Below are positions 2,611 through 32,000 of a DNA stretch of 32,000 bases, one piece after another. This DNA is from Ruminococcus albus 7 = DSM 20455 (GTDB lineage Bacteria > Bacillota > Clostridia > Oscillospirales > Ruminococcaceae). The position numbers were made by a program, and so were the translations under genes. The first letter of the stretch is position 1; every line of letters begins with the position of its first letter. Below the pieces are notes generated by a model. The model was not told the origin of the DNA. It saw nothing but the letters and a program-made list of their open reading frames with translations, and made no database searches. The stretch lies in contig NC_014833.1 in the NCBI RefSeq assembly GCF_000179635.2, positions 3,600,001 through 3,632,000 of the forward strand, written 5' to 3'.

Positions 2611-2616
2611 TTCAAA

Positions 2617-5323: not shown

Positions 5324-5353
5324 CTTATTACTTATTTAGCTAATACAAGTCCG

Positions 5354-5689
5354 TTACACAGGAAAATCAATACCATCCGCCGAAACAGCATCACAGGTCT
5401 CATCTACCCATACTATCAGTCTCTTAACAAACTTGGGTGTTATTGTCTGCGGCACATCAAATGGCAGCAAAAACCTGTTCCAGCCTATACTTCCGGCATT
5501 TCGGAATCTCCTCCCCTTGCTTATCACGTAGGGTGTTTCAGTACCCAGCGGACAGCTCAATATCAAATGCTTATCGGGCGATATAACATTCAATATATAG
5601 TAGTCACTATCATCATCGAGTACAACATACCATAAATACGTAGTATCTCCGACGCATATACTTCGTCTTTTTTCAGAATTTATACCCAT
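5354..5689 (-). CDS. Hypothetical protein (111 aa)
   Basis: ORF lying 4 nt downstream of the GGDEF gene on the same strand. No motif recognised. Confidence 0.5.
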   Translation of the reverse strand: MGINSEKRRSICVGDTTYLWYVVLDDDSDYYILNVISPDKHLILSCPLGTETPYVISKGRRFRNAGSIGWNRFLLPFDVPQTITPKFVKRLIVWVDETCDAVSADGIDFPV

Positions 5690-5693
5690 AGAT

Positions 5694-7699: not shown

Positions 7700-7734
7700 A
7701 AATTCCTCGTGAGAAAAGTTATTTTCTCACGAGG
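7700..7734 (-). terminator. Terminator immediately 3' of the tRNA-Trp fragment
   Basis: Perfect 13-bp stem CCTCGTGAGAAAA (7705-7717) / TTTTCTCACGAGG (7722-7734) with a 4-nt loop. On the minus strand it is followed by AATTTTAAT. Confidence 0.65.
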
Positions 7735-7738
7735 ATAG

Positions 7739-7783
7739 CAGGGGCACCAAGGATCGAACTCGGGACACGCGGTTTTGGAGACT
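7739..7783 (-). pseudogene. Truncated tRNA-Trp(CCA): 3' half only; putative att site of the integrated element
   Basis: The minus strand reads GTCTCCAAAACCGCGTGTCCCGAGTTCGATCCTTGGTGCCCCTGC. This gives the anticodon loop CTCCAAA, a T-arm CCGAG-TTCGATC-CTTGG and the 3' acceptor strand TGCCCCT plus G. The sequence 5' of it (TTATTTAA...) cannot form the D-arm or the 5' acceptor strand. Confidence 0.75.
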
Positions 7784-7929
7784 TAAATAACTTGTAATGA
7801 GTTATAAACACCTGATTTATTAGTACCTAACAACTTCTCCATGAAATCAATACATTATACCATACTAAATTTAATTAGTCAACATCACATTTAGTGTGGC
7901 TAAAGACACATTTATAACAACGATAAAAG

Positions 7930-8886: not shown

Positions 8887-9807
8887 ATGAAATTTGATAA
8901 AGTAAGTGAAACATTCTCCGAGAGAAAGGAAAAAGGAAGTATAAAAGAAAGCCTTATCTCAGCTGAGGAAGTTCTGAACGAGATAACCGAGATAGCTATG
9001 CACAAGCTTGATATGTACACAGACGAGGATGGAAATCAGCCTTTTGACATAGACGATGAAAAAGTTGAAGCCCTGAGCGAAAGTATAAAAGAGAATGGGC
9101 AGCTGGAACCTATCATCGTTCGTAAAAAGAATGGTAGGTATCAGATACTCAGCGGTCATCATAGATACCTCGCTCTGAAGTCGATAACTGCAATGTATGC
9201 ACTTGCAACTGTGGTCGATGTATCCGACCTTAAAGCCTACATGATAGTGTGCGAAAGCAACATCCATCATGCGGCTCCCCCGCCCTCTAAGCTTTGTAAG
9301 ATTTTCCTGCGGTATCGTGCCGCAGGAAAAGAAGAGAAGATAACCGCCGATCAGCTTGCTAAGATGTTCGGCATCAGCCGTGAACAGATGTATCGCATAA
9401 TTGCTATGGACACACTTACAACACCGATGCAGGAACTGGTCGATGCAGGACTTATCTCAACCAACAGCATAAAACAGCTGAGAACACTTACCCCTGACCA
9501 ACAGGATACGCTTGCTGACTATGTTTATAATGAGGACAAAAAGCTTAACAAGGCGAAATGTGACAAGGTCATAGATCTGTTTATCACTAATGCAAATGCA
9601 ACGGTAGAAGATATTGACGAGTGTCTGAACAGTGACGATAAAGAAAAGGAACCTGCCAACAACTACAATGCTATGAAGAAAATGAGCAAAGAACAGCTGG
9701 CTGACTATATTTTTGCAAACCTTGCAAGCTTTACTTCGTCAGAAAAAATCCTTTCTTTTCTCTGTGATAATATTGGAAAGGAGAAGCAAAATCTTGAAAA
9801 ACATTGA
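8887..9807 (+). CDS. parB: ParB-like N-terminal domain protein
   Basis: Sits 3 nt after parA. It has EPIIVRKKNGRYQILSGHHRYLA (ParB/Srx fold). The arginine patch reads GHHRYLA instead of GERRxRA. A plausible HTH lies around QLAKMFGISREQMYRII. Confidence 0.75.
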   Translation: MKFDKVSETFSERKEKGSIKESLISAEEVLNEITEIAMHKLDMYTDEDGNQPFDIDDEKVEALSESIKENGQLEPIIVRKKNGRYQILSGHHRYLALKSITAMYALATVVDVSDLKAYMIVCESNIHHAAPPPSKLCKIFLRYRAAGKEEKITADQLAKMFGISREQMYRIIAMDTLTTPMQELVDAGLISTNSIKQLRTLTPDQQDTLADYVYNEDKKLNKAKCDKVIDLFITNANATVEDIDECLNSDDKEKEPANNYNAMKKMSKEQLADYIFANLASFTSSEKILSFLCDNIGKEKQNLEKH

Positions 9808-10177
9808 ACTGTGCAGAAATTGTTACTATGGCAGAGTGATCGTCGATGACAATGGACAAGTATTTGGACGGTCTTGTGAATTTCCTATATCAGTATTTAT
9901 TGAAAATATAGATAAAGTAAAAAACGAAACAGACGATGAATGTATGTTTTTCAGCGGCGGCTGTTCCGGAGTGATAGGATTTACAAATATAGATAGGAAT
10001 GAGACCGATCACATAGAACAGACAGAAGTCCTTGACGAACAGCCTGAACAAGACAATTTAGAAAAAGCACCTGATATTATTCATAAGAACATTTGGACTA
10101 ACATCTTAATGAATATTGTTATGTTTCTCATTGGTGTTGGTGTAGCTATTATATATACTATTATAATAAGGGACTGA
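9794..10177 (+). CDS. Small membrane-anchored protein (TTG start preferred over the track start at 9713)
   Basis: GGAAAGGAGAAG RBS lies 7-8 nt before the in-frame TTG 9794. This avoids a 95-nt overlap with parB. C-terminal TM: ILMNIVMFLIGVGVAIIYTIII. Confidence 0.5.
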   Translation: MKNIELCRNCYYGRVIVDDNGQVFGRSCEFPISVFIENIDKVKNETDDECMFFSGGCSGVIGFTNIDRNETDHIEQTEVLDEQPEQDNLEKAPDIIHKNIWTNILMNIVMFLIGVGVAIIYTIIIRD

Positions 10178-10182
10178 TAAAG

Positions 10183-10198
10183 TGTGTCTATAGACACA
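10183..10198. repeat. Palindrome TGTGTCTATAGACACA, copy 1
   Basis: Perfect 16-bp palindrome, 5 nt after stop 10175-10177. Confidence 0.9.
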
Positions 10199-11603: not shown

Positions 11604-11619
11604 TGTGTCTATAGACACA
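11604..11619. repeat. Palindrome TGTGTCTATAGACACA, copy 2
   Basis: Perfect copy, 4 nt after stop 11597-11599 and 8 nt upstream of a consensus -35. Confidence 0.9.
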
Positions 11620-11627
11620 TTTTATTC

Positions 11628-11656
11628 TTGACATAAGAGAGCATTTAGTCTATAAT
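11628..11656 (+). promoter_or_regulatory. Consensus SigA promoter TTGACA-17-TATAAT
   Basis: TTGACA 11628-11633, 17-nt spacer, TATAAT 11651-11656, then AGAGAGG RBS and ATG 11667. Confidence 0.7.
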
Positions 11657-17494: not shown

Positions 17495-17510
17495 TGTGTC
17501 TATAGACACA
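17495..17510. repeat. Palindrome TGTGTCTATAGACACA, copy 3
   Basis: Perfect copy, 1 nt after stop 17491-17493 and 17 nt upstream of a -35. Confidence 0.9.
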
Positions 17511-17527: not shown

Positions 17528-17556
17528 TTGATTTATTACAGACGATGTGATATACT
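17528..17556 (+). promoter_or_regulatory. Promoter TTGATT-17-TATACT with an upstream TG
   Basis: TTGATT 17528-17533; TGaTATACT 17548-17556; AGGAG RBS 17571-17575. Confidence 0.55.
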
Positions 17557-18769: not shown

Positions 18770-21700
18770 ATGTTCAAAAGCAAATTTTTGAAGAGAATCG
18801 GCACCGGGATAATGGCTGCTGTATGCGCTTTTTCTTTTGCGACCGCAGAAGTGAAACCGATGAAAGCAAAAGCTGCATCAGAAGCAGTTTTCCCAAACGC
18901 CGATCAGATCATCGCACAGGCAGCTACTCTTCTTGGAGGTAATTATTCAAGCGCCGGTGGTAAAGGCTATTACAATATGTATGATGCCAACAAAACACCT
19001 GTCGCTTACGATGTGAATTATACTCGTTCAGCCGGGGTAGACTGCTCAGGATTGGTGTACTATACCATGACAAAGCTTGGTTACTCAACATCAGGTTTCG
19101 CATGGAATCACCCCGTCCCCGTAGATACTACTCATTGGCTGAGCTACACCAATCCTACTATTTCATACAAAGGCACTACTAAGCCCCTTGAAATAGAAAA
19201 AATAAGAGTAAGTACCAACAATCACCCCTACTGGGAAAGGTCAAACGGTAGTACGATAGAGCCCGGCTCTATTGTTATCGGTGATCCTACGAATGGCAGT
19301 ACTGATCATGCATGGATTTACATGGGCGAATTCGATAATAAAGCAGCTGTTAAAGCTTATCTGAAAAAGATAGGTGTAAATCCTGCATATATCAACGATA
19401 AAAACATTCATGATAATGGTGACGGTGGTAATCACTGGCGCATTGAAGCACAGAGTACATACGGTGTTGTTATAAATAATGACACTAGCGGTAAATACAC
19501 AGGTGCCATGAGAGTTTCTTCTTTCAAATTAAACAGAAATGCCATGTTCACAATACAGAAAACTGAAATCGGCACCGGTAAGATAGTCGGAATTTCTAAG
19601 GTTGACGGAACATCAGCCGTATATGGTGTTTATACAGATAAAAGCTGTAAAAACAAAGTTGATGAAATAAAAATTAACAAAAACGGACTTGGCACTCTTA
19701 GCTTACCTTACGGTACATATTACGTCAAGGAAATAAAAGCTCCGACAGGCTATAATGTATCGAATGATGTTTATACTCTTGTTCCGAATGAAACTGTCAT
19801 CGTTAATGAGGTTAAAACGACTGGATCTATTCGCATTAACAAGACAGCTGAAGATGGTGTAAAAAACAGAGAATTTATGATCAGTTGGTTTGAAAACGGT
19901 GCAATCCATAGAGAACGTTTAAACACCAATACACTCGGTGTAGCAAAGATTGACGGGCTTAACCTCTATGATTATGACGGTGATGTTATAAATTACACTG
20001 TTTCAGAGATAAACAACGATCTGAGAAATGTTAATCCTAGCGCACAGACTGTTACTCTTTCAGAAGCCGATCCCAACAAGGATTATACCGTAGACCTCTA
20101 TTTTAACAATGAGTATAAATACGGCTCTCTCGTATTACACAAAACTCATACAGACGGCAACACCGATGATCGTACCTTTACTGTAACAGGTAACGGCGAA
20201 ACTTATACAGTAGTAACTCATGGCAATGAGCCTGCGGCACTTGAACATCTGCGTATGTACGATGATGATAACAACATCATTACATATACAATTCATGAGG
20301 AAAATGTTCCGGATAGATATGTTCAGCCCGAAGATCAGGAAGTAACTCTCCTGCTTAATCAGGTCACAGATGTATACATCGTTAACAGCCATGTTCCCGG
20401 TACACTCATACTCAAAAAGAGACATGAGGACGGTAAAACAGGTGACCGTAATTTCACAATCACAGGCAGTGATGGCTCCGTCAGAACTGCTGTAACACAT
20501 GGTAATGAGCCTACAGTTATTTCTGACCTTGATATCTATGATACTGACAGCAACCTCATAACATACACTATCCATGAGGAAAATACACCTGATAGATATG
20601 AACAGCCTGCGGATCAGGATGTTACTCTTGAATACAATAAATCCAAGACTGTAACAATCGTCAACAGACTGAAACGCGGTTCAATATCTATCCACAAGCA
20701 GAACAGTGAAACACTTGAGCCTGTTGCCGGTGCAAAATATGAAGTGACCTGCAACGAAGATATTTACAGCTCAAATGGCAAGGATATGATTCCTGCCGGC
20801 GAGCCCATATACACACTGGAAACCAACGAGGACGGCAACGCAGCAACACCTAAGTCCCTGCCTATCGCTCACACATATACACTCACAGAAGTATACGTGC
20901 CGGACGGATATATTTCAGGTGATCCTATCACTATCGAAATGAGTGATGACGGAACACAGCTTGAATACCGTACAACCATAAACGAAAAGCCCACAATCGT
21001 AAAGATAAGCAAGAAATCTCTCACAACAAAAGAAGAACTTGAAGGTGCAAAACTCACAGTAACCGATGATAACGGTACAATAATTGATGAATGGACATCT
21101 ACAACTACTGAACACACTATCATTGGTAAGCTTACAGTCGGCAAGGAATACACTCTGACAGAGGTTCTCGCTCCTGACGGATTCCTCACTGCGGAAAGCA
21201 TCAAGTTTACTGTAAATGAAGATGGCTCCTCAAATCACATTACGATGTATGATGAGGAAAAATCAGGCAGTATCGAAGTTCACAAAACTACCGAAGGCAT
21301 GATAAACGTTGAGGGAATAAGCTTTACACTCAGCGGTACATCAGACCACGGCACAGAAGTAAACACACAAGCAATTACTAACTCAGACGGTATTGCAACC
21401 TTTGAGAAGATCCCTGTGGGTACATACACCATCACCGAAGATGCTGAATCAGTGCCTTATGCGTACCTTGTGGCTGATGAACAGGAAGTATCTGTTATGT
21501 ACGCAGAAACAACTATCGCTGAGATTTACAACGATGAAAAGTCGGGAACTGTTGAGGTCCACAAGAATACTAAGAACAAGGGCAATATCGCTGATATCAA
21601 TTTCGTTCTTGAGGGTACATCTGACAGCGGCAGAGATGTAAAGCTGGAAGCTGTGACCGATAAGGATGGTAAGGCAGTATTTAACAAGGTGCCTGTTGGT

Positions 21701-22516
21701 ACATACACCATCACAGAGGACAAGGAAACAGTACCTACTGCATACCTTGTGGCTGAAAAGCAGGAAGTAAATGTACTGTATGCCGAAACATCTATTGCAG
21801 AAGTTTTCAATGATGAAAAGACAGGCAGCATTGAGATCCACAAGACAACCGAGGGTATGATAAACATCGAGGGTATCAAGTTTATCCTTGAGGGTGTATC
21901 CGACAGTGGAACAGATGTTCACGTTGAAGCTATTACTGACAAGGACGGTAAAGCTACTTTCAGTAATGTTCCTGTTGGAACATACTCTATCACAGAGGAT
22001 GAAAAGACTGTACCGACTGCATATATGGTAGCCGAAGAAACCGAGGTTACTGTGCTGTACGCTGAAACAGTAACTAAGGAGATATTCAACGGTGAAAGAT
22101 CCGGCAGCATCAGTATTCAGAAACAGACTGAGGGAATGAAAGATATCGCCGGAATTAATTTTGTGCTTGAAGGTACATCTGACAGCGGCAGAACTGTGAA
22201 GCTTGAAGCTGTGACCGACAAGGACGGTAAAGCTACATTCAATGGTGTGCCGATAGGTACATACACCATAACCGAGGACGGTAAATCTGTGCCTGCGGCT
22301 TATTTTGTAGCTGATGCTCAGACAGTAACTGTATTTGAAGCACAGACTTCAAACATTACTTTCGAGAACAAGAAAAAGCCTGATTCTTCAACTCCTTCTA
22401 CTTCATTAACCACCACAAGCAATCCTTCAACCGGAGTTGCTGCTAACGGTGCGTTTGCTGTAACAGCAATTGCACTCGCTCTCATGATCATTTCAAGAAA
22501 GCGTAAGAACAGCTAA
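18770..22516 (+). CDS. Sortase-anchored surface protein: N-terminal NlpC/P60 peptidoglycan hydrolase plus Cna-B/SpaA-type repeat domains
   Basis: Signal peptide. NlpC/P60 Cys motif GVDCSGLVYY and His motif DHAWIYMG. Many ~90-aa repeats with the pattern G(S/T)I.I.K....G...F.L.G....DG.A.F..(V/I)P.GTY.I.E. The C-terminus has NPSTG, a hydrophobic segment and RKRKNS. Confidence 0.9.
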   Translation: MFKSKFLKRIGTGIMAAVCAFSFATAEVKPMKAKAASEAVFPNADQIIAQAATLLGGNYSSAGGKGYYNMYDANKTPVAYDVNYTRSAGVDCSGLVYYTMTKLGYSTSGFAWNHPVPVDTTHWLSYTNPTISYKGTTKPLEIEKIRVSTNNHPYWERSNGSTIEPGSIVIGDPTNGSTDHAWIYMGEFDNKAAVKAYLKKIGVNPAYINDKNIHDNGDGGNHWRIEAQSTYGVVINNDTSGKYTGAMRVSSFKLNRNAMFTIQKTEIGTGKIVGISKVDGTSAVYGVYTDKSCKNKVDEIKINKNGLGTLSLPYGTYYVKEIKAPTGYNVSNDVYTLVPNETVIVNEVKTTGSIRINKTAEDGVKNREFMISWFENGAIHRERLNTNTLGVAKIDGLNLYDYDGDVINYTVSEINNDLRNVNPSAQTVTLSEADPNKDYTVDLYFNNEYKYGSLVLHKTHTDGNTDDRTFTVTGNGETYTVVTHGNEPAALEHLRMYDDDNNIITYTIHEENVPDRYVQPEDQEVTLLLNQVTDVYIVNSHVPGTLILKKRHEDGKTGDRNFTITGSDGSVRTAVTHGNEPTVISDLDIYDTDSNLITYTIHEENTPDRYEQPADQDVTLEYNKSKTVTIVNRLKRGSISIHKQNSETLEPVAGAKYEVTCNEDIYSSNGKDMIPAGEPIYTLETNEDGNAATPKSLPIAHTYTLTEVYVPDGYISGDPITIEMSDDGTQLEYRTTINEKPTIVKISKKSLTTKEELEGAKLTVTDDNGTIIDEWTSTTTEHTIIGKLTVGKEYTLTEVLAPDGFLTAESIKFTVNEDGSSNHITMYDEEKSGSIEVHKTTEGMINVEGISFTLSGTSDHGTEVNTQAITNSDGIATFEKIPVGTYTITEDAESVPYAYLVADEQEVSVMYAETTIAEIYNDEKSGTVEVHKNTKNKGNIADINFVLEGTSDSGRDVKLEAVTDKDGKAVFNKVPVGTYTITEDKETVPTAYLVAEKQEVNVLYAETSIAEVFNDEKTGSIEIHKTTEGMINIEGIKFILEGVSDSGTDVHVEAITDKDGKATFSNVPVGTYSITEDEKTVPTAYMVAEETEVTVLYAETVTKEIFNGERSGSISIQKQTEGMKDIAGINFVLEGTSDSGRTVKLEAVTDKDGKATFNGVPIGTYTITEDGKSVPAAYFVADAQTVTVFEAQTSNITFENKKKPDSSTPSTSLTTTSNPSTGVAANGAFAVTAIALALMIISRKRKNS
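21257..22372 (+). repeat. Four in-frame tandem repeats of 279 bp (93 aa) inside the surface-protein gene
   Basis: Units start at 21257, 21536, 21815 and 22094, each beginning E(K/R)(S/T)G(S/T)(I/V)... A more diverged pair lies at about 20123-20680. Confidence 0.85.
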
Positions 22517-22553
22517 TCATCGCTTTAAAAAGCACCCCCTTATAAAAGCAGAC

Positions 22554-22581
22554 AGCCGCCCTATACAGGCGGCTTGTTTGC
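22554..22581 (+). terminator. Terminator of the surface-protein gene
   Basis: AGCCGCC (22554-22560) pairs with GGCGGCT (22569-22575), followed by TGTTTG. Confidence 0.5.
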
Positions 22582-22652
22582 TGAATGTCTACGAACAATT
22601 TGTCTATAAACACATTTTCTCTTTATTCATTCGTAGGCATTCAGCAGATAAT
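22571..22652 (+). repeat. Composite hairpin repeat, copy 1 (16-bp arms around a degenerate palindrome)
   Basis: Arms GCTGAATGTCTACGAA (22580-22595) and TTCGTAGGCATTCAGC (22630-22645). The loop carries TTTGTCTATAAACACA (22599-22614). The ends are shared with copy 2. Confidence 0.8.
22599..22614. repeat. Palindrome family, degenerate copy (TTTGTCTATAAACACA)
   Basis: Matches the 16-bp consensus at 14 of 16 positions and sits in the loop of composite repeat 1. Confidence 0.6.
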
Positions 22653-22696
22653 TTGATCTTCACGATAAATTAATTAGTAAAGTAGGTGATGTAATT

Positions 22697-23101
22697 ATGA
22701 AATCATTAAACGATGAAAATAAATTTATTGAAAATGAAATCACAGTAATTGATCCTGAAATTCTTACAGTCAAAGAAAACAATACATTTAAGATTTTAAT
22801 GTATGGCTTTACCATCGATGAAGAAGAGATACCTCTTTTGTGTGATATAGAAAGTGTAGAACCACGCATACTGGGAGATACAGAAAAACAATATATTTTA
22901 CTCTTTAGATTTAAAAATCCAGTAAGAAACGATATATATGTACACTACACTGTGAATTTTGTATTTGACGATGACAGAGAGACTTTTATCAAAGCATACA
23001 ACTACATAAAAGAGCTAATTACCGTAGAACATATCTTACTTGATTTTTATTGCATTAACAAATTTAATCCTTTTTATGAGATCGGTTTTTTTTATGACTG
23101 A
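22697..23101 (+). CDS. Hypothetical protein (134 aa), very AT-rich
   Basis: AGGTGA RBS. No motif recognised. Confidence 0.55.
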   Translation: MKSLNDENKFIENEITVIDPEILTVKENNTFKILMYGFTIDEEEIPLLCDIESVEPRILGDTEKQYILLFRFKNPVRNDIYVHYTVNFVFDDDRETFIKAYNYIKELITVEHILLDFYCINKFNPFYEIGFFYD

Positions 23102-23145
23102 AAATGAGAAAAAGGCAAATTAAGGTAATCGAAAGGAGTATAAAT

Positions 23146-23910
23146 ATGGAACAAGGGTATTATGTACTGTGTAACGATATTAATGAGCTACTATCAATGA
23201 TAAAATATGGAGAACCGGGACTTCCTTATGTCATTGACTGGGCAGTACCTAATCTAAAAAAGCAAAAAATATTTCCGGTATATGTTCATGCTGGATTACT
23301 AGAAGAACTAGGGATAATCTTAAGTGATATCCGCGAATCAAAACCATCGTGTGAATACGATACTATTATAACATATAATGAGTTTTTGCAGAGCAAAACA
23401 TCACAAACCAAACAGGTAAATGCAACACAAAGCATAAAAGGAGGAACAAATATGAAAAGATACAGAATATGCTATGATAAAATGCTGGTAGCAAAAGGTG
23501 ATCTGAATATTAACGGAGAACTGTATGGTGGTGTCGCGGCATACCTTGAATATCAGGTATTCAATAAATCTTCCGGAGAAGAAATATTCTTCACTTTCGA
23601 CGATACTGATACTCCCCGAGAAGAAAAAATCGAAGGTCATTATCTTAATGACTTTTACGATCTTGCTTATGACAAGGAAAATGGCTTTATCATCATTCCA
23701 GCCGATGAACTGAAAGAGCTTAAAGATCACGTTATAAAATTCAGAGTTGGTATGTTCACTAAGAGCATAGATAACAATGGATGTTTAGAAGATGTTTCCA
23801 TAACCGAAAAACAGTTCGTAAAGATACTCAAAGATAATCCGCAATCATTCGACACAGCAGATAACAATTTCGCTCAGAATTGTGGTGTTACATTCAACAT
23901 CATTGGATAA
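23146..23910 (+). CDS. Hypothetical protein (254 aa; possibly two products)
   Basis: AAAGGAG 23132-23138 before ATG 23146. An internal in-frame AAAGGAGG (23437-23444) lies 7 nt before ATG 23452. Confidence 0.55.
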   Translation: MEQGYYVLCNDINELLSMIKYGEPGLPYVIDWAVPNLKKQKIFPVYVHAGLLEELGIILSDIRESKPSCEYDTIITYNEFLQSKTSQTKQVNATQSIKGGTNMKRYRICYDKMLVAKGDLNINGELYGGVAAYLEYQVFNKSSGEEIFFTFDDTDTPREEKIEGHYLNDFYDLAYDKENGFIIIPADELKELKDHVIKFRVGMFTKSIDNNGCLEDVSITEKQFVKILKDNPQSFDTADNNFAQNCGVTFNIIG

Positions 23911-23929
23911 CAAAAAATACGAATTCTGT

Positions 23930-23965
23930 AAAAAAGCTGCCGACAACAATGCCGACAGCTTTTTT
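23930..23965. terminator. Bidirectional terminator between convergent genes
   Basis: AAAAAAGCTG (23930-23939) pairs with CAGCTTTTTT (23956-23965). Confidence 0.5.
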
Positions 23966-23967
23966 GC

Positions 23968-24375
23968 TTAGATCCTATCAAGTAACTCCGACGGTTTGAG
24001 CGCAGGAATTTTACTATCCTTAAAATCACGAATGTTTCTGGTTACAATAAAATCCGCATTGATCCTACTTGCCTGACACATCTGTAAAGCATCTTCATAA
24101 TCAGAAGTGAGCATTTCTGCCGCTGAATTAAGGTCGGATGATTTAAGATCAACGACTTCAAAAATCATAAGTATCTGCTTTATTAGCTGCTCCGTTTTCT
24201 TAGGATCAAGTTCCTTGCGCAGGATGTACACAATATTCGGTACAGTGAGTGCAGAAACATATCCATCGATTTTGTTTACCTCGCAGTATTTCCAAATCTT
24301 TGATGAATTTTCTACAAAATCCGGTCGATTGCAGAGAACGTCAAGGATCACATTTGTATCAATCAAGATCTTCAT
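23968..24375 (-). CDS. vapC: PIN-domain toxin (VapC-type ribonuclease)
   Basis: MKILIDTNVILDVL opens with the first PIN acidic residue. 135 aa. Overlaps the upstream antitoxin gene by 17 nt. Confidence 0.85.
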   Translation of the reverse strand: MKILIDTNVILDVLCNRPDFVENSSKIWKYCEVNKIDGYVSALTVPNIVYILRKELDPKKTEQLIKQILMIFEVVDLKSSDLNSAAEMLTSDYEDALQMCQASRINADFIVTRNIRDFKDSKIPALKPSELLDRI

Positions 24376-24592
24376 GTTTCTTTAACCTTTCCGCGCGAAT
24401 TTCTTTTTCATCATAATCATTTTTTAGAACTCCTGTAAGCGAGTCCGTTAGAAAAGAAACCGTAGACTTATGTGAAACCAGTCTGGCAACTTCTTTTCCG
24501 TTTTTGAGTATGATTATCTCGCCGCCTTGCTGAACTTCTTGTAGATACTGACCGAAGTTATTTTGAAAATCAGTTGCTGTTGCAGTAATCAT
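24359..24592 (-). CDS. Phd/YefM-family antitoxin
   Basis: 77 aa. The N-terminus ITATATDFQNNFGQYLQEVQQGGEIIILKNGKEVARLVS fits the Phd/YefM pattern. GGAGGTG RBS. Confidence 0.8.
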   Translation of the reverse strand: MITATATDFQNNFGQYLQEVQQGGEIIILKNGKEVARLVSHKSTVSFLTDSLTGVLKNDYDEKEIRAERLKKHEDLD

Positions 24593-24623
24593 AAAAACAC
24601 CTCCATGTTTTTTAGCTAATATA

Positions 24624-24652
24624 AGTATATCATATTTTAGCTAAAATGTCAA
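24624..24652 (-). promoter_or_regulatory. Toxin-antitoxin promoter TTGACA-17-TATACT with two TTAGCTAA palindromic boxes
   Basis: On the minus strand: TTGACA (24652-24647), 17-nt spacer, TGaTATACT (-10 at 24629-24624). TTAGCTAA occurs at 24637-24644 (in the spacer) and at 24612-24619 (downstream of the -10). Confidence 0.65.
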
Positions 24653-24675
24653 TGGATATTTTAGTAACGCAGAAA

Positions 24676-24761
24676 GGCTTGTTTGCTGAATGCCTGCGAA
24701 ACTGTGTCTATAGACACACTCCCCCTCCCCCATTATTATTCGCAGGCATTCAGCAGATAAT
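24676..24761 (+). repeat. Composite hairpin repeat, copy 2
   Basis: Perfect 16-bp arms GCTGAATGCCTGCGAA (24685-24700) and TTCGCAGGCATTCAGC (24739-24754). The loop carries the perfect palindrome and a C-rich tract. Confidence 0.85.
24703..24718. repeat. Palindrome TGTGTCTATAGACACA, copy 5
   Basis: Perfect 16-bp palindrome in the loop of composite repeat 2. Confidence 0.9.
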
Positions 24762-24803
24762 ACGGTCTGCTATAAAATTATAATTTAAAAGGAGGTTTTT
24801 CTA

Positions 24804-25607
24804 TTGAGAATCCAAGTATCCGCGTCCAGGTATACCCCGCCTGCGGGAGATACCAACAACACAAGAGGTTTTGCATCAGTCAAGTTCCAGAACGACAATG
24901 GTGATGAGTATATGCTCGAACGTATAACTATCAGAGAGTCAGCCAACGGAATGTACGTCAGCCTACCGACCGTAGCACGTAATGCCAAGGTCAACGGTTC
25001 TCCGGTGTATGATTCAAACGGTAATCCCAAAAAAGAATTTACAGAGGTCCTGCACCCTGTAAACAACGCTGCACGTACTGAATTGTGTAACGCCATCATG
25101 GAGCGCTGGAGGGCGAATGACAGAGAGTATGCCGAGTTCAATATCCTTGGTAATACTCAGTTTGAGATGAGCAAGATCAACGTCAACCTGCACAGCGATC
25201 AGGCAAAACACCTTGTCGGAATCGGCTCGGTAACATTCGGTGATGCTTTTAAACTTGACAGCATCATGGTCAAAGAGGGCAGCAAGGGCGAATTCCTTGA
25301 TTTGCCCAGCTATCGCACAAAAAAATATGATCCCGAAACAAAGCAGATAGTGATAGGCGCAGACGGACAGCCTGAGATAGACTACCGTGATTTGTTCCAC
25401 CCGAACACCCGAGAAGCCTATGATAAGCTGACCAATGCAGTCCTGGATAGTCTTCACGCTAAACAACAGGCACAGGATAATAGCTATGCTGCATACGAAC
25501 AGCAGCAGAACAACTATAATCAGCAGAGTGCTGCCGCTGCCATTCCCGACTACGATCCATTCAGTGGTTTTGAAGATATAACACCGCAGTACGGACGCGG
25601 AAGATAA
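24804..25607 (+). CDS. Tandem SpoVG-like domain protein with a Gln/Asn-rich tail (TTG start)
   Basis: AAAGGAGG lies 8 nt before TTG 24804. Two segments match the SpoVG pattern: ...RGFASVKF...ITIRESANGMYVSLP...EFTEVLHPVN..AR.EL..AI and ...GIGSVTFGDAFKLDSIMVKEGSKGEFLDLPS...YRDLFHPNTREAYDKLTNAVL. Confidence 0.6.
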   Translation: MRIQVSASRYTPPAGDTNNTRGFASVKFQNDNGDEYMLERITIRESANGMYVSLPTVARNAKVNGSPVYDSNGNPKKEFTEVLHPVNNAARTELCNAIMERWRANDREYAEFNILGNTQFEMSKINVNLHSDQAKHLVGIGSVTFGDAFKLDSIMVKEGSKGEFLDLPSYRTKKYDPETKQIVIGADGQPEIDYRDLFHPNTREAYDKLTNAVLDSLHAKQQAQDNSYAAYEQQQNNYNQQSAAAAIPDYDPFSGFEDITPQYGRGR

Positions 25608-25728
25608 TTTCTTCTCTCTCGGAGAATAAAAACTCAAAACAATAAGCACAAACTTTAATCGTTACTCCCTAGGGAAACAAAGCTATAATCACTCCTACGG
25701 GAGATTTTGTTGCGAAAGGATATAAATA

Positions 25729-28700
25729 ATGAGATTAAATAATTCAATAGAAAACTGGCAGAATTATCTCAGCTTTTCATCAAATCTTTATTCTTATGGT
25801 TATGCGGATATCATGAAAGTGTATTCCGCAGAACCTACCGCAACTGCCGTTGCCACACTGGAAGAATGGAACAGAATGGGCAGATTTATAAATCCCAAAG
25901 CTAAAGGTTTCATTTTCAGTGACGGACATATACGCTATGACATTAAGGATACAAACGGCGCGTCCGTAAGAAAATGGCAGTTTACAAGTGGTCACATTCC
26001 CTTTTATTATGACCATTTCAACGCCATGAACATAACAGATAATGTTATGCTCGATAATGGAAATGACTTCTCAGTAAACATCTGTGATTTTCTCTGCGAA
26101 ATGATGTCAAAAGACAAGTCCCTTTCCGGTGTTGTTAATGAGAATGTAAGGGAAATTGCGGCTTTATCTACTACGTATGTTATCTGCGAAAGACTTGGTA
26201 TTGATAAAAATGAAACATATCTCGACTTATCTGACATTACAAAACTGTCAGATGAAGAAGTCAACCTTACAGCTACAATTACCGCGATATATGCAAGGTC
26301 AATGCTTAAAGCTGCTCAAAGGACAGTATCTTCTGTAACAAAGGAACAGATAGAAGAACGCAGCAGAAATGTCATGTTTACAGCCGAAGAACTTAGCGAA
26401 TTTGAAGATATTACCGATGCAGTATATGACGAGGAAATCTCTGAGGAAACTACTGTTGAAACGGCAGAAGATGAAGAAAAGAAGTATACTGTACCCGAAA
26501 CACTTGAAAATGTCACAGCCGACAATAACAATGATGATATTATTCAGCAAAATAAAAGTGTGGTTACTGTTCAGCCCGTATCTGAAGTATCAGATAGCGG
26601 CTTAACTGCCGAAAAACAGCAAGAAATACTTGAAACTGCACTTATGATAGAAAACAGCTCTATCAATAAAGAACGTATCAACGCTTTGTTTTCGGGTAAC
26701 ATCGGTGTTAATGCTCTGACCTCTTATGTAAGGACTAATTACAAAGGTAAAAGCTATAACTCGACCAATGATGATATTATCAGCGCATATCTTGCAAGAA
26801 ATGATTGTTTCGTGGTAAGATACAATATTGATGGAAATGCGGGAAATCTGTCATTTGATTGGCAGACCGTAACAAACACCATAGATCAACTTATCCGTGA
26901 GGATAGATTTATAACACCCAAAGAAAAAGACGATACAGCGGAAGAAAAAACCTCGCTTACGCTGCATAAAGTCGGTGACTTTTGGGAAATGTACGATAAT
27001 GATGCCCGGGCTGCTTCTGAAGCACTCGGGCTTTATCTTTCAAGGAAAGGAAAAGTCGCTATGTGCGGCTTTCCTGATAAAGAGAAAGATAACTACACTC
27101 AAAGACTGCGTGATGCAGGATTTATCATTATAAATGATAATATCCCGGAGAATAAAAAAGAAACTCTCCTTGACAGCATTACCATTAAGTTCGGAACAGA
27201 AAACGATCCCGAACTGACAACAGAAAGCAAGCTGCTTGACGATCTCATAACTAAATACAGAAATGAACATAACGGTAACGATATGAGTTTCGCGCTTGCA
27301 AATGCCGTAATCGAGTATCTTGATGAAAAGCAGCATACTGAGCGTACCGATAAAGACAACAAAGTTGGCTGGTACAAGAAAACATGGTTTACAGTTACCG
27401 CAACAATAAGCGGCGAACAGTTTTCCTATGAGGCAAGATATGATATAGGTGACGGTAAAGGAACAGGCGGCGGCTCTATAATCGACCATATTGAGCAGTT
27501 TCAGACCGAGATAATCCGTCAGAAACCATATCCATACAATACAGAAGATAGTCAAAACACAGCCAAAAATGCAGTTGACATTTTAATACCGTATCTGAAA
27601 GCTAATACCGAGCTGACAGAAGAAGAAAAGCTGATACTGTGGGAACTGAAAAGAGATAATCCGATCAAGGGTATACAGCCTGTGTTGGATCCTAAACTAC
27701 TCACTCACTATATACCGTCCGGACTTCCGCTGATAGCTGATAACAATGATGTTTTCTTTGTATTACGGCATGATCGTTTCTATCATCATAACAGACAGGA
27801 AATTGCAGATTTCTTTGAAACTCATGCAAATGCCAAAGAACGTGAGCAGTTTATCCGTAAAGCTATAAACGAAGAATATTCACAGCTTTCAACAGATGAA
27901 GAAAAGACCATGGGCTACAAAACATTCGAGGATGGTCTTTGCATCTGGGAAGGTAATTATATGTCCCACACAGCCGAGAATTTCTATTCTTGGGAAGATG
28001 TTGTAACATTATTCGCTGATATGATGCAACGCGGTGAATATCTTGACACTCAGATAATTGATACACCTGAAACGGTTGAAGATAACGTACAGGAAGATGC
28101 TGCTGCACAGCTTTCATTTTTCGGTGAACCCGAAACAATGGCTGCCACAACAAAGCCAAAAAGCCGAAAGGATACATCTGAAATTGATACACGTCCAATG
28201 TTCAATGTAACCGATGATATGGTCAACTATGTTCTTAGATGCGGCAGTGCCACAAAAGGAACACTGGAGCGTATTATTGCGCAGTACCAAAAAGGCAAGT
28301 CCGATGCGGAAAACGGCGAGTTTCTCAGCCGTGAGTTTAATAGCAGTTTTCGTTCTGAGGATAATGGTCGAGGGTATGTATATTCAGAGAGTGAACTGAT
28401 CTCATCTTGGTGGGACAGAGAAAGATTGTGGGTAGGTGCAGGCGAAAGCGCACTTAACGCAAAAATGTACAATGTTGCACCATGGAATTTAATTGCTGCA
28501 CGAGTAGGTGAGCTGATTGAAAAAGGTCAGTTCTGTTCACAGGCTGTTATAGATCGTGCAGCTGAAATGGAAATAAAGGATATCGCAGACAAATTATGGT
28601 ATCTGCATCAGGATACCGACAATGAAGAATATCAGTATTTTATCCCGGATGAGATGTTTAAAGGCGGTTTTCCTGACAGTACCGAGAGAATAAAAAATGA

Positions 28701-31700
28701 TCTTATGGACAGCGATAAACTGCAAGACTACATTTCAGGGATGACAAAGTTTGTAAATGATTATGAGCAGAACAGAGATATACTCCGTTGGCATTTTCAT
28801 AGACCGCGTGAAACCTTAGAACGGCTGAAAGACCTGACTATCGAGCGCAAACAATTCAAAGCTGACCCTGATTTTGAGTTTATACCATCGTTCTTTATTT
28901 CCGAAGATGAAAAAAATCGTGTAATACAGCATTTTAACTATCAGACAAAATTCAAGATCCGAGATTATTTTGACGATGAAGAACGCACCACAAAAGATAA
29001 GGTTAAATTCCTGAACAACTTATATTCAGACGGCGGATTTGGCGATAGGGATACAAATTTTTATTACGGTAAAAAGGGCTATACCATAGTTCACTCCCCT
29101 GCTTACGATGAGTGGCAAGGCTGCACAGCCACAATGAACTGGAAAAACGTTGTTGTAAGAATAGACAGCCTTATCAAAATAGACAAATTTATCTCTGAGA
29201 AAGATAAAAAGGAACAGGAAAAGCTCATTCAGCAGAAGCTTTTTGAAGCTAAAAACAAGGAAGAACTTGAAAAGGCAAAAGAGAATATCCGAAACTTTTG
29301 GGAAAGCGAGTACGGTGGTGGCAGTGATGATTTTACCGATCTTCACAAAGTCGGCATAGCATACACTACCGTTGATCTGGACGATAGTCACTATATGGAA
29401 CTTCAGGTATATGCTGACCTTATGGACAATGCTCTGCGCTATTACATCGACAATGAACTTTACAAAGAAGAAAAATACGATGATCTTCATTCGTTCAATG
29501 AGGACGCACTTTCGGTTCTTGATTTTCAAGAACTCTATGACCAGTTCGATATCAGCAAACTGGAAGAAAAATATAATGCTTCAAAACACGAAAAAGAGTC
29601 TTTATCAGCGGAAATATCTGTTAATGCATCAGATAATGAGCTGACTGTAATGCAGTATGGTGCAGCACAGCGAAACCTCAAAGCATTTAATGAACTGTTC
29701 CCTGAGTTCATGCAGAAAGAATACGCTTATATGCGAATGGAAGCCGGGGATGCTTATGAACCGTTAAGCCTTGAATGGCTTTCGGAAGATACTTTCTCCA
29801 TAATGCATTTTTATGACCAGAACGGCGATTTGATGTATGACCCCGATGTTGTTATTAAGGTCGATGCTACTTCTGCGCAGGCAATAAGCTTTGAAAACTC
29901 AAGTCTTGGTATCTATGAAAGCTATACCAGCGGTTTATTTGACCAGGACGATTGCAATAACTTCGTAGAAAAATGGCTTGCGAACATCTCACATCAGGGT
30001 TACAAACCTGTGCGCATAAAAAATTACGATGATGAGATCGTACTTGATACAACATACTCTGAGTTGATGCACGAAAATAAAGCTGAACCTGATATTGACA
30101 GCGATATAATAGGCATTGACAAATTAAAGCGAAATGGCAGTGTAGTCTACTGGAGTTACTTCAATGAAGATGGTAACGATGGTAACGGACAGTTCATCGA
30201 AATGACCATAACCGAATTTGACATCAATGAAGCTGTAAAGGTAATGAGTGCTGCGGGTGGTCGTACCAAATTAGGCTATCAAACATTCATCAACTACATT
30301 GAAGATCACAGTTCTCAGATAGTCGTTGATAAGGGAACAGAAGATTTTGAGGATGTAAAAGCTGAATTTCTGAATGGCGAATACGATATTCAGGTCACAG
30401 CTGATAATGACAGCCGTGAACAGCTGATAGCTGATTTCATTGATAACACCGACCATACCAGAACACTTGTTCCCGATAACATCGGATACGCTATCGGCAT
30501 TTACAGCGGAGAAGCATTTGACAAAACAACTATCGACGAAAATACAAAGAAATACAAGGTAGTTGCTCAGATCGACCGTAAAAACCGCATAGCTGTCAAG
30601 TGGGATGAACCCGATCTCCCTGAGAGCGTAAAGGATGCCATATCAAAGGTAGCACTTACCTATGACATCGTGGAAGATGATACTCAAAAAGCAGAGGATG
30701 CTGCATTGGACTTTCTCGGCTTAGATGAAGTCGATGATGAGTACACCATACTACGTAATAAAAATGATGCGGTTGAGAATGATACAGTTCAGCTTTCCAT
30801 CTTCGGAACACCCGTGTTCACAGAGGAAAATACTCCCGTTGTGCCTGTAAAAGTCGGTGCTGAAATAGAGTATCAGGACAGGACCTATACAGTAACGGCT
30901 ATCAAGCCCGAACACAATGAAATAGATCTTCTCGATCAGCATACCGGATGGTATCCTATAACTCGCGTAGAACCACTTGACGTATTTATATCTGAATACG
31001 ATGCTAAAACAGCAAAATCTGTAGTTGAAGCAGCTGCGGTAGTCAACGGACCTCAGAACTATACTATTACAGATGATGAGTTAGGAGTTGGTACACCGAA
31101 AGAAAAATACAAGGCAAACATTGCTGCTATTAAACTGCTGAAACAGATAGAAGCCGAGGACAGGCAGGCAACAGTCGAGGAACAGGAAGTGCTTGCACAT
31201 TATGTCGGTTGGGGCGGACTTTCGGGAGCTTTTGAAGCAACTAACAGTTCATGGGAAAATGAATACTCAGAACTGAAAAATCTGCTTACACCGGAGGAAT
31301 ACAATGCAGCACTCAATTCCGTGGTAAATGCACACTTTACAAGCCCGGTAATTATCAGAAAGATGTATACCGCACTGGAAAACTTCGGCTTTAAGGGCGG
31401 CAAGGTGCTGGAACCGTCCTGCGGTATCGGTAATTTCTTAGGCTGTGCTCCGACCGACAAAGCGGCTAACTATCAGTTCACGGGAGTTGAGATAGACAGT
31501 ATCACGGGACGTATAGCAAAACAGCTTTATCCGCAGGCAAAAATACAAGTTACTGGCTTTCAGAATGCTGATGTTAAAGACAATTACTTCGATGTAGTAA
31601 TAGGTAATGTACCGTTTGCAAACTACAGCGTGACGGACCGTAAGTATAACAAGTCAAATCACCTGATACATGACTATTTCATACTGAAATCCCTCGATCT

Positions 31701-32000
31701 GACACGCGCAGGCGGTGTAGTTGCAGTAATTACTTCATCTGGTACAATGGATAAGGTGTCCGCAAAGGTACGAACAGAGATCAGCAACAAAGCAAAGCTG
31801 ATTGGTGCTATAAGGCTGCCTGACACAGCATTTGAAAAAAATGCCGGAACAAATGCAGTCGCAGATATCCTTTTCCTGCAAAAGCGTTCAGAACCAAATG
31901 CAGACTATGAAGACTGGCTTGAAGTTGACCGCGAAACATATTACGGTCTGCCTATAAATCAGTATTTCATAGATCACCCCGAAATGGTCTGCGGAACAGT
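25729..32000 (+). CDS. Giant multidomain (polyvalent-type) protein, 5' part; includes a MutS-domain-I-like module and an N6-adenine DNA methyltransferase; continues beyond the window
   Basis: I translated this frame codon by codon from ATG 25729 (AAAGGA RBS) to 32000 and found no stop. It is missing from the ORF track because it has no stop in the window. Recognised motifs: VGDFWEMYDNDARAASEALGLYLSRKG..MCGFP (about 26953-27135), methyltransferase motif I VLEPSCGIGNF (31405-31437) and motif IV GNVPFA (31603-31620). Confidence 0.85.
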   Translation, partial: MRLNNSIENWQNYLSFSSNLYSYGYADIMKVYSAEPTATAVATLEEWNRMGRFINPKAKGFIFSDGHIRYDIKDTNGASVRKWQFTSGHIPFYYDHFNAMNITDNVMLDNGNDFSVNICDFLCEMMSKDKSLSGVVNENVREIAALSTTYVICERLGIDKNETYLDLSDITKLSDEEVNLTATITAIYARSMLKAAQRTVSSVTKEQIEERSRNVMFTAEELSEFEDITDAVYDEEISEETTVETAEDEEKKYTVPETLENVTADNNNDDIIQQNKSVVTVQPVSEVSDSGLTAEKQQEILETALMIENSSINKERINALFSGNIGVNALTSYVRTNYKGKSYNSTNDDIISAYLARNDCFVVRYNIDGNAGNLSFDWQTVTNTIDQLIREDRFITPKEKDDTAEEKTSLTLHKVGDFWEMYDNDARAASEALGLYLSRKGKVAMCGFPDKEKDNYTQRLRDAGFIIINDNIPENKKETLLDSITIKFGTENDPELTTESKLLDDLITKYRNEHNGNDMSFALANAVIEYLDEKQHTERTDKDNKVGWYKKTWFTVTATISGEQFSYEARYDIGDGKGTGGGSIIDHIEQFQTEIIRQKPYPYNTEDSQNTAKNAVDILIPYLKANTELTEEEKLILWELKRDNPIKGIQPVLDPKLLTHYIPSGLPLIADNNDVFFVLRHDRFYHHNRQEIADFFETHANAKEREQFIRKAINEEYSQLSTDEEKTMGYKTFEDGLCIWEGNYMSHTAENFYSWEDVVTLFADMMQRGEYLDTQIIDTPETVEDNVQEDAAAQLSFFGEPETMAATTKPKSRKDTSEIDTRPMFNVTDDMVNYVLRCGSATKGTLERIIAQYQKGKSDAENGEFLSREFNSSFRSEDNGRGYVYSESELISSWWDRERLWVGAGESALNAKMYNVAPWNLIAARVGELIEKGQFCSQAVIDRAAEMEIKDIADKLWYLHQDTDNEEYQYFIPDEMFKGGFPDSTERIKNDLMDSDKLQDYISGMTKFVNDYEQNRDILRWHFHRPRETLERLKDLTIERKQFKADPDFEFIPSFFISEDEKNRVIQHFNYQTKFKIRDYFDDEERTTKDKVKFLNNLYSDGGFGDRDTNFYYGKKGYTIVHSPAYDEWQGCTATMNWKNVVVRIDSLIKIDKFISEKDKKEQEKLIQQKLFEAKNKEELEKAKENIRNFWESEYGGGSDDFTDLHKVGIAYTTVDLDDSHYMELQVYADLMDNALRYYIDNELYKEEKYDDLHSFNEDALSVLDFQELYDQFDISKLEEKYNASKHEKESLSAEISVNASDNELTVMQYGAAQRNLKAFNELFPEFMQKEYAYMRMEAGDAYEPLSLEWLSEDTFSIMHFYDQNGDLMYDPDVVIKVDATSAQAISFENSSLGIYESYTSGLFDQDDCNNFVEKWLANISHQGYKPVRIKNYDDEIVLDTTYSELMHENKAEPDIDSDIIGIDKLKRNGSVVYWSYFNEDGNDGNGQFIEMTITEFDINEAVKVMSAAGGRTKLGYQTFINYIEDHSSQIVVDKGTEDFEDVKAEFLNGEYDIQVTADNDSREQLIADFIDNTDHTRTLVPDNIGYAIGIYSGEAFDKTTIDENTKKYKVVAQIDRKNRIAVKWDEPDLPESVKDAISKVALTYDIVEDDTQKAEDAALDFLGLDEVDDEYTILRNKNDAVENDTVQLSIFGTPVFTEENTPVVPVKVGAEIEYQDRTYTVTAIKPEHNEIDLLDQHTGWYPITRVEPLDVFISEYDAKTAKSVVEAAAVVNGPQNYTITDDELGVGTPKEKYKANIAAIKLLKQIEAEDRQATVEEQEVLAHYVGWGGLSGAFEATNSSWENEYSELKNLLTPEEYNAALNSVVNAHFTSPVIIRKMYTALENFGFKGGKVLEPSCGIGNFLGCAPTDKAANYQFTGVEIDSITGRIAKQLYPQAKIQVTGFQNADVKDNYFDVVIGNVPFANYSVTDRKYNKSNHLIHDYFILKSLDLTRAGGVVAVITSSGTMDKVSAKVRTEISNKAKLIGAIRLPDTAFEKNAGTNAVADILFLQKRSEPNADYEDWLEVDRETYYGLPINQYFIDHPEMVCGT

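Follow-up and report, generated by a model that had tools for sequence, protein, structure and literature searches.

What does an integrative and conjugative element (ICE) do with a small hairpin-forming repeat that it carries twice, each time in front of genes that differ among its relatives? The question is raised by a 32,000-nt stretch of the Ruminococcus albus 7 = DSM 20455 chromosome (contig NC_014833.1, positions 3,600,001 to 3,632,000; hereafter the window, numbered from its first letter), in which two ~85-nt repeats, each enclosing a palindrome, stand just upstream of + strand operons. The copies sit in an ICE, by genes for ParA/ParB, DUF3848/3849, a sortase-type adhesin, tandem SpoVG and a methylase/helicase polyvalent protein. 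How anti-restriction and establishment genes are switched on when a Gram-positive conjugative element enters a cell is largely unknown, and the two schemes that have been described both come from Bacillus plasmids. An original prediction, made from the letters of the window, took the repeats for folds under selection and proposed a structured 5′ leader, a protein-bound cruciform or a cassette boundary as roles. Here we find that the repeats are genuine, conserved and strongly constrained. By analogy with the establishment gene regulatory sequences (EGeRS) of those plasmids, each is most likely a functionally EGeRS-like control unit, placed before variable establishment (anti-restriction or anti-defence) operons.

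Architecture of the repeated module

From 5′ to 3′, the module consists of the terminator of the preceding gene, a left arm of 17–22 nt, a 16-bp palindrome, a variable pyrimidine-rich tract with an A/T-rich end, a right arm, and a short leader with a ribosome-binding site (Table 1). In copy 1 the core of the left arm (22579-22595, TGCTGAATGTCTACGAA) pairs with that of the right arm (22630-22646, TTCGTAGGCATTCAGCA); in copy 2 the corresponding cores lie at 24684-24700 (TGCTGAATGCCTGCGAA) and 24739-24755 (TTCGCAGGCATTCAGCA). The core stem is 17 bp in both copies, not 16 bp as first proposed, around loops of 34 nt (copy 1) and 38 nt (copy 2) that agree with the proposed 34–38 nt. On the + strand it gains five outer pairs, TTGTT/GATAA, two of them G·T, and reaches 22 bp (22574-22651 and 24679-24760). 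All bases and coordinates quoted for the two repeats were correct on re-reading the sequence, as were the double change between A22591:T22634 and G24696:C24743 and the change between T22588·G22637 and C24693:G24746. A spacing of 50–52 nt between copy and start codon had also been claimed; repeat ends at 22652 and 24761 give 44 and 42 nt, and only a count from the end of the core stem, at 50 and 48 nt, comes roughly to the claimed value.

Repeats and palindrome are not there by chance, because their counts lie far above expectation and their folding z-scores are low. At up to 3 mismatches, the 17-mer arm matches the window 4 times against 0.08 expected; at up to 2 mismatches, the palindrome GTGTCTATAGACAC occurs at 6 sites against 0.07 expected, 4 of the 6 being perfect. 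For the + strand, folding z-scores are −6.4 (copy 1) and −8.6 (copy 2) with RNA parameters and −4.7 and −5.9 with DNA parameters; the − strand, folded as RNA, scores −4.3 and −4.8. The same 17-mer scan found no arm alone, outside the module, anywhere in the window.

A small inverted repeat overlaps the end of the right arm in every copy type but gamma (L001, L005 and L024A; L numbers denote the related loci compared here). We considered this repeat, GCAGAT-N6-ATCTGC, as a second regulon-wide operator and rejected it, since it is internal to the module only. The long hairpin was likewise rejected as an intrinsic terminator: its right arm is followed by AGAUAAU/ACGG, with no U-tract, and only the hairpin at 22554-22574 qualifies. 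A search against Rfam gave nothing at gathering score, and an E-value threshold gave chance-level matches only.

A family of copies in R. albus elements

Copies were gathered through SpoVG homologues and through two pattern scans, each of which fixed one arm only. The 16 distinct copies, in 12 loci, are all of R. albus type, with two contigs from strain AR67, and the repeats are thus conserved outside the strain in which they were noticed. Real matches in the scan of 185,579 genomes fell only on two R. albus AR67 contigs; of the 25 loci that the two pattern scans returned, 17 came from unrelated genomes and matched by chance. A covariance-model search for copies and compensatory changes had been suggested; built from 14 copies and run over 202 kb of related loci, the model found no further or more divergent copies beyond the 16, only bare palindromes, and the alignment holds few double changes and two broken cells.

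At four-fold degenerate sites, SpoVG of the window is 35–37% identical to that of L001 or L003, that is, saturated, while the two arms, the palindrome and GGCTTGTTT show little or no difference from copy to copy. Module length ranges from 83 to 102 nt and loop length from 33 to 51 nt, in four loop types whose 3′ part varies in both sequence and length. Right-arm conservation stops where pairing stops, alignment column 99 being paired and column 100 being T, C or A. In thirteen of the 16 copies the module begins directly where an intrinsic terminator (GCCGCC-loop-GGCGGC-TTGTTT) has its 3′ half; the three that lie beside a toxin–antitoxin pair, copy 2 included, keep only its GGC, a remnant that shows their descent from a terminator-adjacent copy. 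The copy ends 29–50 nt before the start codon in the five copy types measured, and the leader in L017 exceeds 70 nt. Most loci have two copies per element, and the gene downstream of the module is of at least six different kinds.

The two copies of the window do not result from a recent segmental duplication. Copy 1 clusters with the orthologous ‘beta’ copies of other elements and copy 2 with their ‘alpha’ copies, so the duplication is old and has not been homogenised within the element. The copies in L015 and L017 are recombinant (mosaic).

Constraint on the arms

Pairing on the + strand holds in 292 of 294 cells (21 pairs), and 17 of the 21 pairs never vary. One pair changes from G:C to A:U, a double change seen in three sequences of one lineage; another is C:G in six sequences, U·G in seven and U:A in one. 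The RNAalifold covariation term is −0.61 kcal/mol. Pairing is thus held as the original prediction expected, but its claim that selection acts on the fold, and not only on the sequence, is unsupported in that form, with 17 pairs invariant and covariation thin. Because those pairs are invariant while neighbouring four-fold sites are saturated, the constraint on sequence is at least as strong as that on the fold.

The pairing that exists is asymmetric between strands. On the + strand, 253 cells are Watson–Crick, 39 are G·T and 2 are mismatches, and the 39 wobbles become A·C mismatches on the − strand. The common C/T polymorphism of the left arm always stands opposite an invariant G. Pairing on the + strand is favoured by the G·T bias, by the C/T that faces G and by the conserved block ending where complementarity ends. 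On duplex DNA, bridging of the arms by protein is unlikely, because loop length ranges over 33–51 nt without helical phasing. Extrusion of a cruciform with a spacer of more than 30 nt is kinetically implausible, and the proposed cruciform role is unlikely in duplex DNA given the 33–51-nt spacers.

The palindrome as an element-wide motif

Within the window, GTGTCTATAGACAC starts at 7896, 10184, 11605, 17496, 22600 and 24704, the sites at 7896 and 22600 being degenerate. The positions of the 11605 and 17496 sites are conserved in relatives, the latter in L005, L014, L017 and L019. The 14-mer or its variant GTGTC-N4-GACAC is present even in lineages whose SpoVG is only 33–38% identical. In L071–L073 (SpoVG 38% identical) the identical 14-mer comes after the stop codon of SpoVG and before a terminator with a 14-bp stem (L071 3850-3905; also L072 and L073), which holds GCAGAT...ATCTGC, the half-sites of the module’s small inverted repeat. 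In L074 (SpoVG 33% identical) five intergenic copies of AAAAATGTGTCG[C/T]GCGACACATT, at 992, 2583, 4519, 5559 and 6749, lie 5–24 nt past a stop codon, and one of them is separated from a ribosome-binding site by just 5 nt; the genes before them end, in at least three cases, in near-identical DNA encoding ...DEDELG, and the repeated-spacer arrangement looks like modular gene cassettes joined at the spacer. No flanking arms were found at the palindrome sites of L071–L074 or at the lone sites in the window. Because distant sites lack arms, we take the palindrome to be an old family-wide motif and the arms an addition of the R. albus clade.

In the part of the ICE that the window covers, no protein other than ParB can be recognised as a sequence-specific binder of double-stranded DNA, which makes ParB a candidate binder of the palindrome. 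Among the small ICE open reading frames (ORFs), no helix-turn-helix (HTH) or ribbon-helix-helix (RHH) regulator was found. Scans of IMG/VR for the 16-mer palindrome and for SpoVG relatives returned single chance matches or none, and a literature search on the motif strings returned unrelated primers only. Right beside the degenerate site at 7896 lies a near-consensus promoter (7854-7882, − strand; TTGACT-17-TATAAT with TG) that points outward from the ICE end to a tRNA fragment.

Expression of the downstream operons

The promoter scan found no canonical sigma70 promoter inside the module, though the ICE has perfect ones elsewhere. The sole sigma70-like match in copy 2 is TAGACA-17-TATTAT (24711-24739). 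The right-arm core, exactly 17 nt long, is flanked by an A/T-rich hexamer and by GATAAY. Most copies have a terminator immediately upstream and no space for a promoter there; a dedicated 5′ leader, one of the roles first proposed, is hard to square with a terminator that directly abuts the left arm. Since a convergent toxin–antitoxin pair lies upstream of copy 2, that copy must hold a promoter or rely on antisense read-through.

Two other modes of control were tried and rejected. Predicted folds that extend through the start codon do not have the C-rich loop sequestering the ribosome-binding site. A leader peptide begun at the left-arm ATG would be read in frames that vary from copy to copy, and no ribosome-binding site precedes them. 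As a separate observation, TAGACA, one half of the palindrome, is at the same time a −35-like hexamer 16–17 nt from a TATTAT, at 10163-10190 (− strand) and 24711-24739 (+ strand); the pair at the 10184 site would transcribe antisense to the end of the parB operon.

Cassette shuffling at the module

As had been anticipated, comparison of related elements showed that the genes after and between the copies change while the copies stay constant. L003 has adhesin, module and SpoVG with nothing between, and L001 has a single module followed by two genes fused onto SpoVG. In the window, L002, L014, L019 and L024, two modules lie 0.4–4.8 kb apart and enclose differing contents; L002, 95% identical to the window, lacks 22675-23436, as does L014. 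Loop type is independent of the downstream gene, and the breakpoints of gene differences lie in leaders and ribosome-binding-site regions, at no fixed point of an arm. These gene orders indicate that the module region is a gene-shuffling hotspot, at which orphan small genes and toxin–antitoxin pairs are swapped between near-identical elements, and homologous recombination between the ~85-nt repeated modules suffices to explain it. ‘Cassette boundary’ is apt as a description of the repeats, with no sign of a site-specific recombinase.

Readings of the module

We favour, at a probability of roughly 45%, a hairpin on the + strand that insulates or gates expression. In outline, a dimeric DNA-binding protein encoded by the ICE, for which a KorB-like ParB is the best candidate, would bind the palindrome and keep the operons silent in the resident state, allowing a burst after transfer comparable to that of p576 and to zygotic induction of RP4. 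The arms would pair only when the + strand is single, either as RNA from a leaky upstream terminator or as the transferred strand. Once paired, they would enclose the operator in a 22-bp hairpin and insulate the downstream genes from upstream transcription, much as in the EGeRS1 region of pLS20. At least one arm may also be read sequence-specifically by a protein, which would account for arm invariance, and the duplicated modules could serve as portable homology for the gain, loss and shuffling of small-gene cassettes. A more ambitious form of this proposal seems quite unlikely: a compact entry switch of Gram-positive conjugative elements, in which the operator of a global regulator sits within a strand-specific 22-bp hairpin, on the transferred strand or on read-through RNA, and times or insulates anti-defence genes, parallel in function to Frpo though differently constructed, while also providing portable homology by which anti-defence cassettes could be exchanged.

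Several observations weigh against a gating hairpin. Covariation by itself does not establish the fold, and conservation of sequence prevails: the observed score is reached in 18 of 500 shuffles, two doubly hit pairs arise by chance in 6–12% of simple simulations, and two cells are broken, an A·C in L017, probably in a recombinant copy, and a C·A in L002B. The near-total invariance of both arms is unexplained by a hairpin alone. In L074, L071 and L001 (site 442), the palindrome lies between cistrons or beside a ribosome-binding site, where a promoter would not fit, and may therefore not be a classical operator. No promoter can be placed consistently in the module, as TAGACA-17-TATTAT fits alpha and gamma copies only, nothing fits beta and delta, and GATAAY, the only position-conserved −10-like hexamer, ends in T, C or A. 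Downstream operons without a promoter of their own would be hard to reconcile with expression of copy 2 behind the convergent toxin–antitoxin pair.

The arm invariance in particular is what a pure duplex-DNA device would predict, in which the arms are inverted 17–22-bp sites for a second ICE protein, a co-repressor or activator, around the operator, and the hairpin is irrelevant. Such conservation at saturating divergence follows from protein read-out and not from structure alone; the 17 unvarying pairs and the two copies with broken pairs fit it as well, and in p576 Reg576 operators are placed next to promoters, at one end or at both (PMC8708921). We nevertheless consider this device unlikely, although it is far from negligible. 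The arms are about 55–74 bp apart without helical phasing, so that cooperative bridging is improbable; two positions at which the arms differ are always G·T when read on the + strand, and the polymorphic C/T of the left arm always faces G. The double change from G:C to A:T preserves a symmetry that independent sites need not keep, no arm stands alone in the window and no candidate binder was found among ICE ORFs. Single-strandedness could matter at entry itself, with the module serving as a promoter on single-stranded DNA (Frpo-like) or as an sso/ssi-like priming site, perhaps with the downstream ICE primase. The module does precede anti-restriction-type genes, with SSB and a DUF3991/Toprim primase nearby in relatives, its hairpin is stable under DNA parameters (z −4.7 to −6.6) and tolerates a variable loop, and Frpo elements precede leading-region genes (PMC11541004). 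This is very unlikely, though: a stem of 17–22 bp is too short for −35 and −10 elements 17 bp apart and rebuilds neither on either strand, and the −10-like GATAAY lacks a conserved final T. The transferred strand of pLS20 is the non-template strand (PMC8708921), and if the same holds here the entering strand would not be transcribed; priming at the module would copy upstream DNA and not the downstream genes, and two copies per element would be unnecessary.

Differences in gene content between and after the copies of near-identical elements, together with the recombinant copies in L015 and L017, also raise the prospect of a site-specific recombination or transfer site (an attC-like boundary, a second origin of transfer or an invertible switch) that mobilises the genes between copies, for which conserved arms around a variable loop would be typical of sites read by a recombinase or relaxase. 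We rate it as highly improbable, as no integrase, recombinase or relaxase lies close to the copies in the window or in L001, attC cores are absent, the interior keeps one orientation in all 18 instances, breakpoints avoid a fixed arm point, and homologous recombination between ~85-nt repeats would do. A functionless selfish miniature repeat or a neutral leftover of duplication is scarcely credible. Terminal inverted repeats around a short interior, in several copies, are its hallmarks, but these copies belong to one ICE family and occupy a single kind of site in it, with a terminator before them and a ribosome-binding site behind; the only two real matches of the genome scan were both in R. 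albus AR67; and the interior holds the ICE’s own operator motif between arms conserved despite saturated synonymous sites.

A third, small and tractable module, with an operator nested in a strand-specific stem, would offer a simple system in which to ask whether single-stranded structure plays a part in this control. Its host is a rumen Ruminococcus, and R. albus AR67 is an isolated strain. As the mark of a gene-shuffling hotspot, the module is also a practical flag for new anti-defence candidates in gut Clostridia.

The element and its surroundings

Positions 1-6704 of the window hold chromosomal − strand genes (folD, lgt, two M16 peptidases and a GGDEF protein); near folD, at 221-355, lies a 59-nt inverted repeat, 78% complementary, with a 17-nt spacer. 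At 7704-7790 (− strand) follow the 3′ fragment of a tRNA gene (T-arm GAGTTCGATCCTTGG and acceptor end) and then its terminator; ARAGORN found no complete tRNA in the window. This is probably the junction of chromosome and ICE (the attachment site), which would place the left end of the ICE near 7790. The remainder of the window is ICE, with nearly all genes on the + strand in the order ParA, ParB, DUF5348, exonuclease, DUF3848, DUF3849, a 1248-aa adhesin with repeats, copy 1, two orphan ORFs, a bidirectional terminator, a PIN/Phd pair (− strand), copy 2, tandem SpoVG and a giant polyvalent protein with an Eco57I-type methylase (Table 1).

Table 1. Features of the window discussed in the text
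Feature	Position	Strand	Remarks
Palindrome site 1, degenerate	7896..7909	.	~100 nt inside ICE end, upstream of parA
ParB/Spo0J-family HTH protein	8887..9807	+	Score above TIGR00180 cut-off
Palindrome site 2	10184..10197	.	Just past parAB operon
Palindrome site 3	11605..11618	.	Directly upstream of perfect promoter TTGACA-17-TATAAT (11628-11656)
Palindrome site 4	17496..17509	.	Upstream of TTGATT-17-TATACT (17528-17556)
Adhesin gene	18770-22516		Tandem 279-nt (93-aa) repeats at 20213-22350, 62-74% identity
Terminator of adhesin gene, intrinsic, bidirectional	22554..22574	+	GGCGGC 3′ half and T-tract TTGTTTGCT merge into copy 1 left arm
Copy 1 left arm	22574..22595	+	Outer TTGTT 22574-22578, core 22579-22595
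Copy 1 palindrome, degenerate	22600..22613	.	TTGTCTATAAACAC, 2 mismatches
Copy 1 variable pyrimidine-rich tract, A/T-rich end	22614..22629	+	3′ portion of loop
Copy 1 right arm	22630..22651	+	Core 22630-22646, outer GATAA 22647-22651
Small inverted repeat GCAGAT-N6-ATCTTC	22644..22661	.	Overlaps right-arm end, copy 1
Orphan 134-aa gene	22697..23101	+	Absent from 95%-identical locus L002
Orphan 254-aa ORF	23146..23910	+	In-frame fusion of two genes separate in relatives
Bidirectional terminator	23917..23978	.	Between cassette genes and convergent toxin–antitoxin pair
PIN toxin (23968-24375) and Phd/YefM antitoxin (24359-24592)	23968..24592	-	Promoter TTGACA-17-TATACT at 24652..24624
Copy 2 left arm	24679..24700	+	Upstream terminator reduced to GGC vestige
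Copy 2 perfect 16-bp palindrome	24703..24718	.	TGTGTCTATAGACACA
Copy 2 C-rich tract and A/T-rich end	24719..24738	+	3′ portion of loop
Copy 2 right arm	24739..24760	+	Pairs with left arm
Tandem-SpoVG-domain protein	24804..25607	+	TTG start
Giant polyvalent protein, leaves window	25729..32000	+	DUF6908, LPD25, MutS_I, Eco57I-type methylase

The adhesin homologue in L001 has SpaA/Cna-B-type repeat domains. The orphan 134-aa gene had no PHROGs match, and the cassette proteins had no match in Pfam or PHROGs. The two parts of the 254-aa ORF occur in relatives as proteins of ~100–102 aa (L019) and 152 aa (L002, L014 and L015), and a strong internal ribosome-binding site precedes the second part (start 23452). 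Between the toxin–antitoxin promoter and copy 2, at 24620-24670, lie two direct repeats ATTTTAGCTAA, each with a palindrome TTAGCTAA, which are probably the Phd/YefM operator. The tandem-SpoVG gene has TTG as its start codon in the window and ATG in the 99%-identical L002 copy and in other relatives.

The polyvalent homologue in L001 is 3097 aa long, has an SNF2 helicase and is followed by a DUF3991/Toprim primase; the first 500 aa of the protein in the window, used as a query, gave no useful relative among the matches listed. At more distant tandem-SpoVG loci, SSB and a DUF3991/Toprim primase stand beside SpoVG. Establishment or anti-restriction regions are expected to hold such a gene set (Iyer et al. 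2017, as cited in PMC12084326; PMC11541004), and by gene content the region that carries the copies fits this type. No integrase, recombinase or relaxase was found near the copies among the scanned ORFs of the window or in L001; the origin of transfer, nic site and relaxase of the ICE are located beyond the window and beyond the related loci retrieved.

Comparison with known systems

Some familiar repeat classes resemble the module only in outline. Like attC sites, it has imperfect inverted repeats around a variable centre and borders small variable cassettes, and attC is read as a folded single strand; unlike them, it lies upstream of genes, by their ribosome-binding sites, and holds an operator, and its cassettes have terminators of their own and include a toxin–antitoxin pair on the opposite strand. 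The RYYYAAC/GTTRRRY cores are absent from the arms and no IntI or integrase domain occurs in the scanned ORFs of the window, so we rejected an attC site. An inverton was rejected because, in scans whose patterns were orientation-neutral, 18 of 18 instances have the palindrome beside the left arm and the C/T-rich tract beside the right. A miniature inverted-repeat transposable element or repetitive extragenic palindrome was rejected because the scan of 185,579 genomes was real only on the two AR67 contigs and every copy is in the same ICE context.

The Frpo and ssi elements of F and ColIb-P9 (PMC11541004; Masai & Arai 1997) share with the module hairpin-forming repeats before early anti-defence and SSB-type genes, but Frpo has long stems that rebuild −35 and −10 elements, whereas the 17–22-bp stem of the module rebuilds neither. 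A Frpo-like promoter was rejected on this short stem and on the promoter scan, which found no −35/−10 pair in either arm on either strand.

Another parallel concerns the palindrome. In the KorB–OB regulon of IncP plasmids and in ParB–parS systems, a palindrome is scattered at varying distances from promoters, and KorB operators have no framing inverted repeat. The ICE appears similar, with a ParB-family gene next to ParA and a 13–16-bp palindrome in several copies (six sites, four perfect); the sequences of OB and of the ICE palindrome differ, and only the operator of the module is framed by a second inverted repeat.

The original prediction knew of no described element class with this architecture, which overlooks the EGeRS of pLS20 and p576 (PMC8708921, PMC6294495). 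EGeRS2 of p576 combines a promoter with Reg576 operators, an arrangement by which genes are expressed transiently once transfer has taken place (Val-Calvo et al. 2018, PMC6294495). It resembles the module as a short repeated unit before establishment genes, under one repressor that is encoded by the element and has operators at several operons, and differs in its strong sigma-A promoter, its TTATCCC-N2-TTATCCC direct repeats and its RHH protein. Both copies in the window lack TTATCCC-N2-TTATCCC and a strong promoter, and there is no RHH match among ICE ORFs; the module instead has a 16-bp palindrome and an additional long-range inverted repeat, without a canonical promoter.

EGeRS1 of pLS20 is 420–750 bp long, rich in inverted repeats and repeated at the head of five variable operons; a constitutive promoter is absent from it, and it stops read-through when in its native orientation but not when reversed (Val-Calvo et al. 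2021, PMC8708921). Its mechanism is still unexplained, and its authors dismissed a promoter on single-stranded DNA, the transferred strand being the non-template strand (PMC8708921). Like EGeRS1, the module is repeated right before the ribosome-binding sites of several variable operons and has no recognisable constitutive sigma-A promoter, in its case by sequence scan only. At nucleotide level, positions 22500-25700 of the window had no match among 72,556 plasmids (PLSDB, blastn), and an identity to EGeRS1 of at least 60% was not found. Against the GC-rich sequence, the many inverted repeats and the branched fold of EGeRS1, the module sets 83–102 nt, one long-range stem and a nested palindrome that is used alone elsewhere. 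It thus differs from EGeRS in size, sequence and architecture, being built as one long-range stem around an operator and fused to a terminator.

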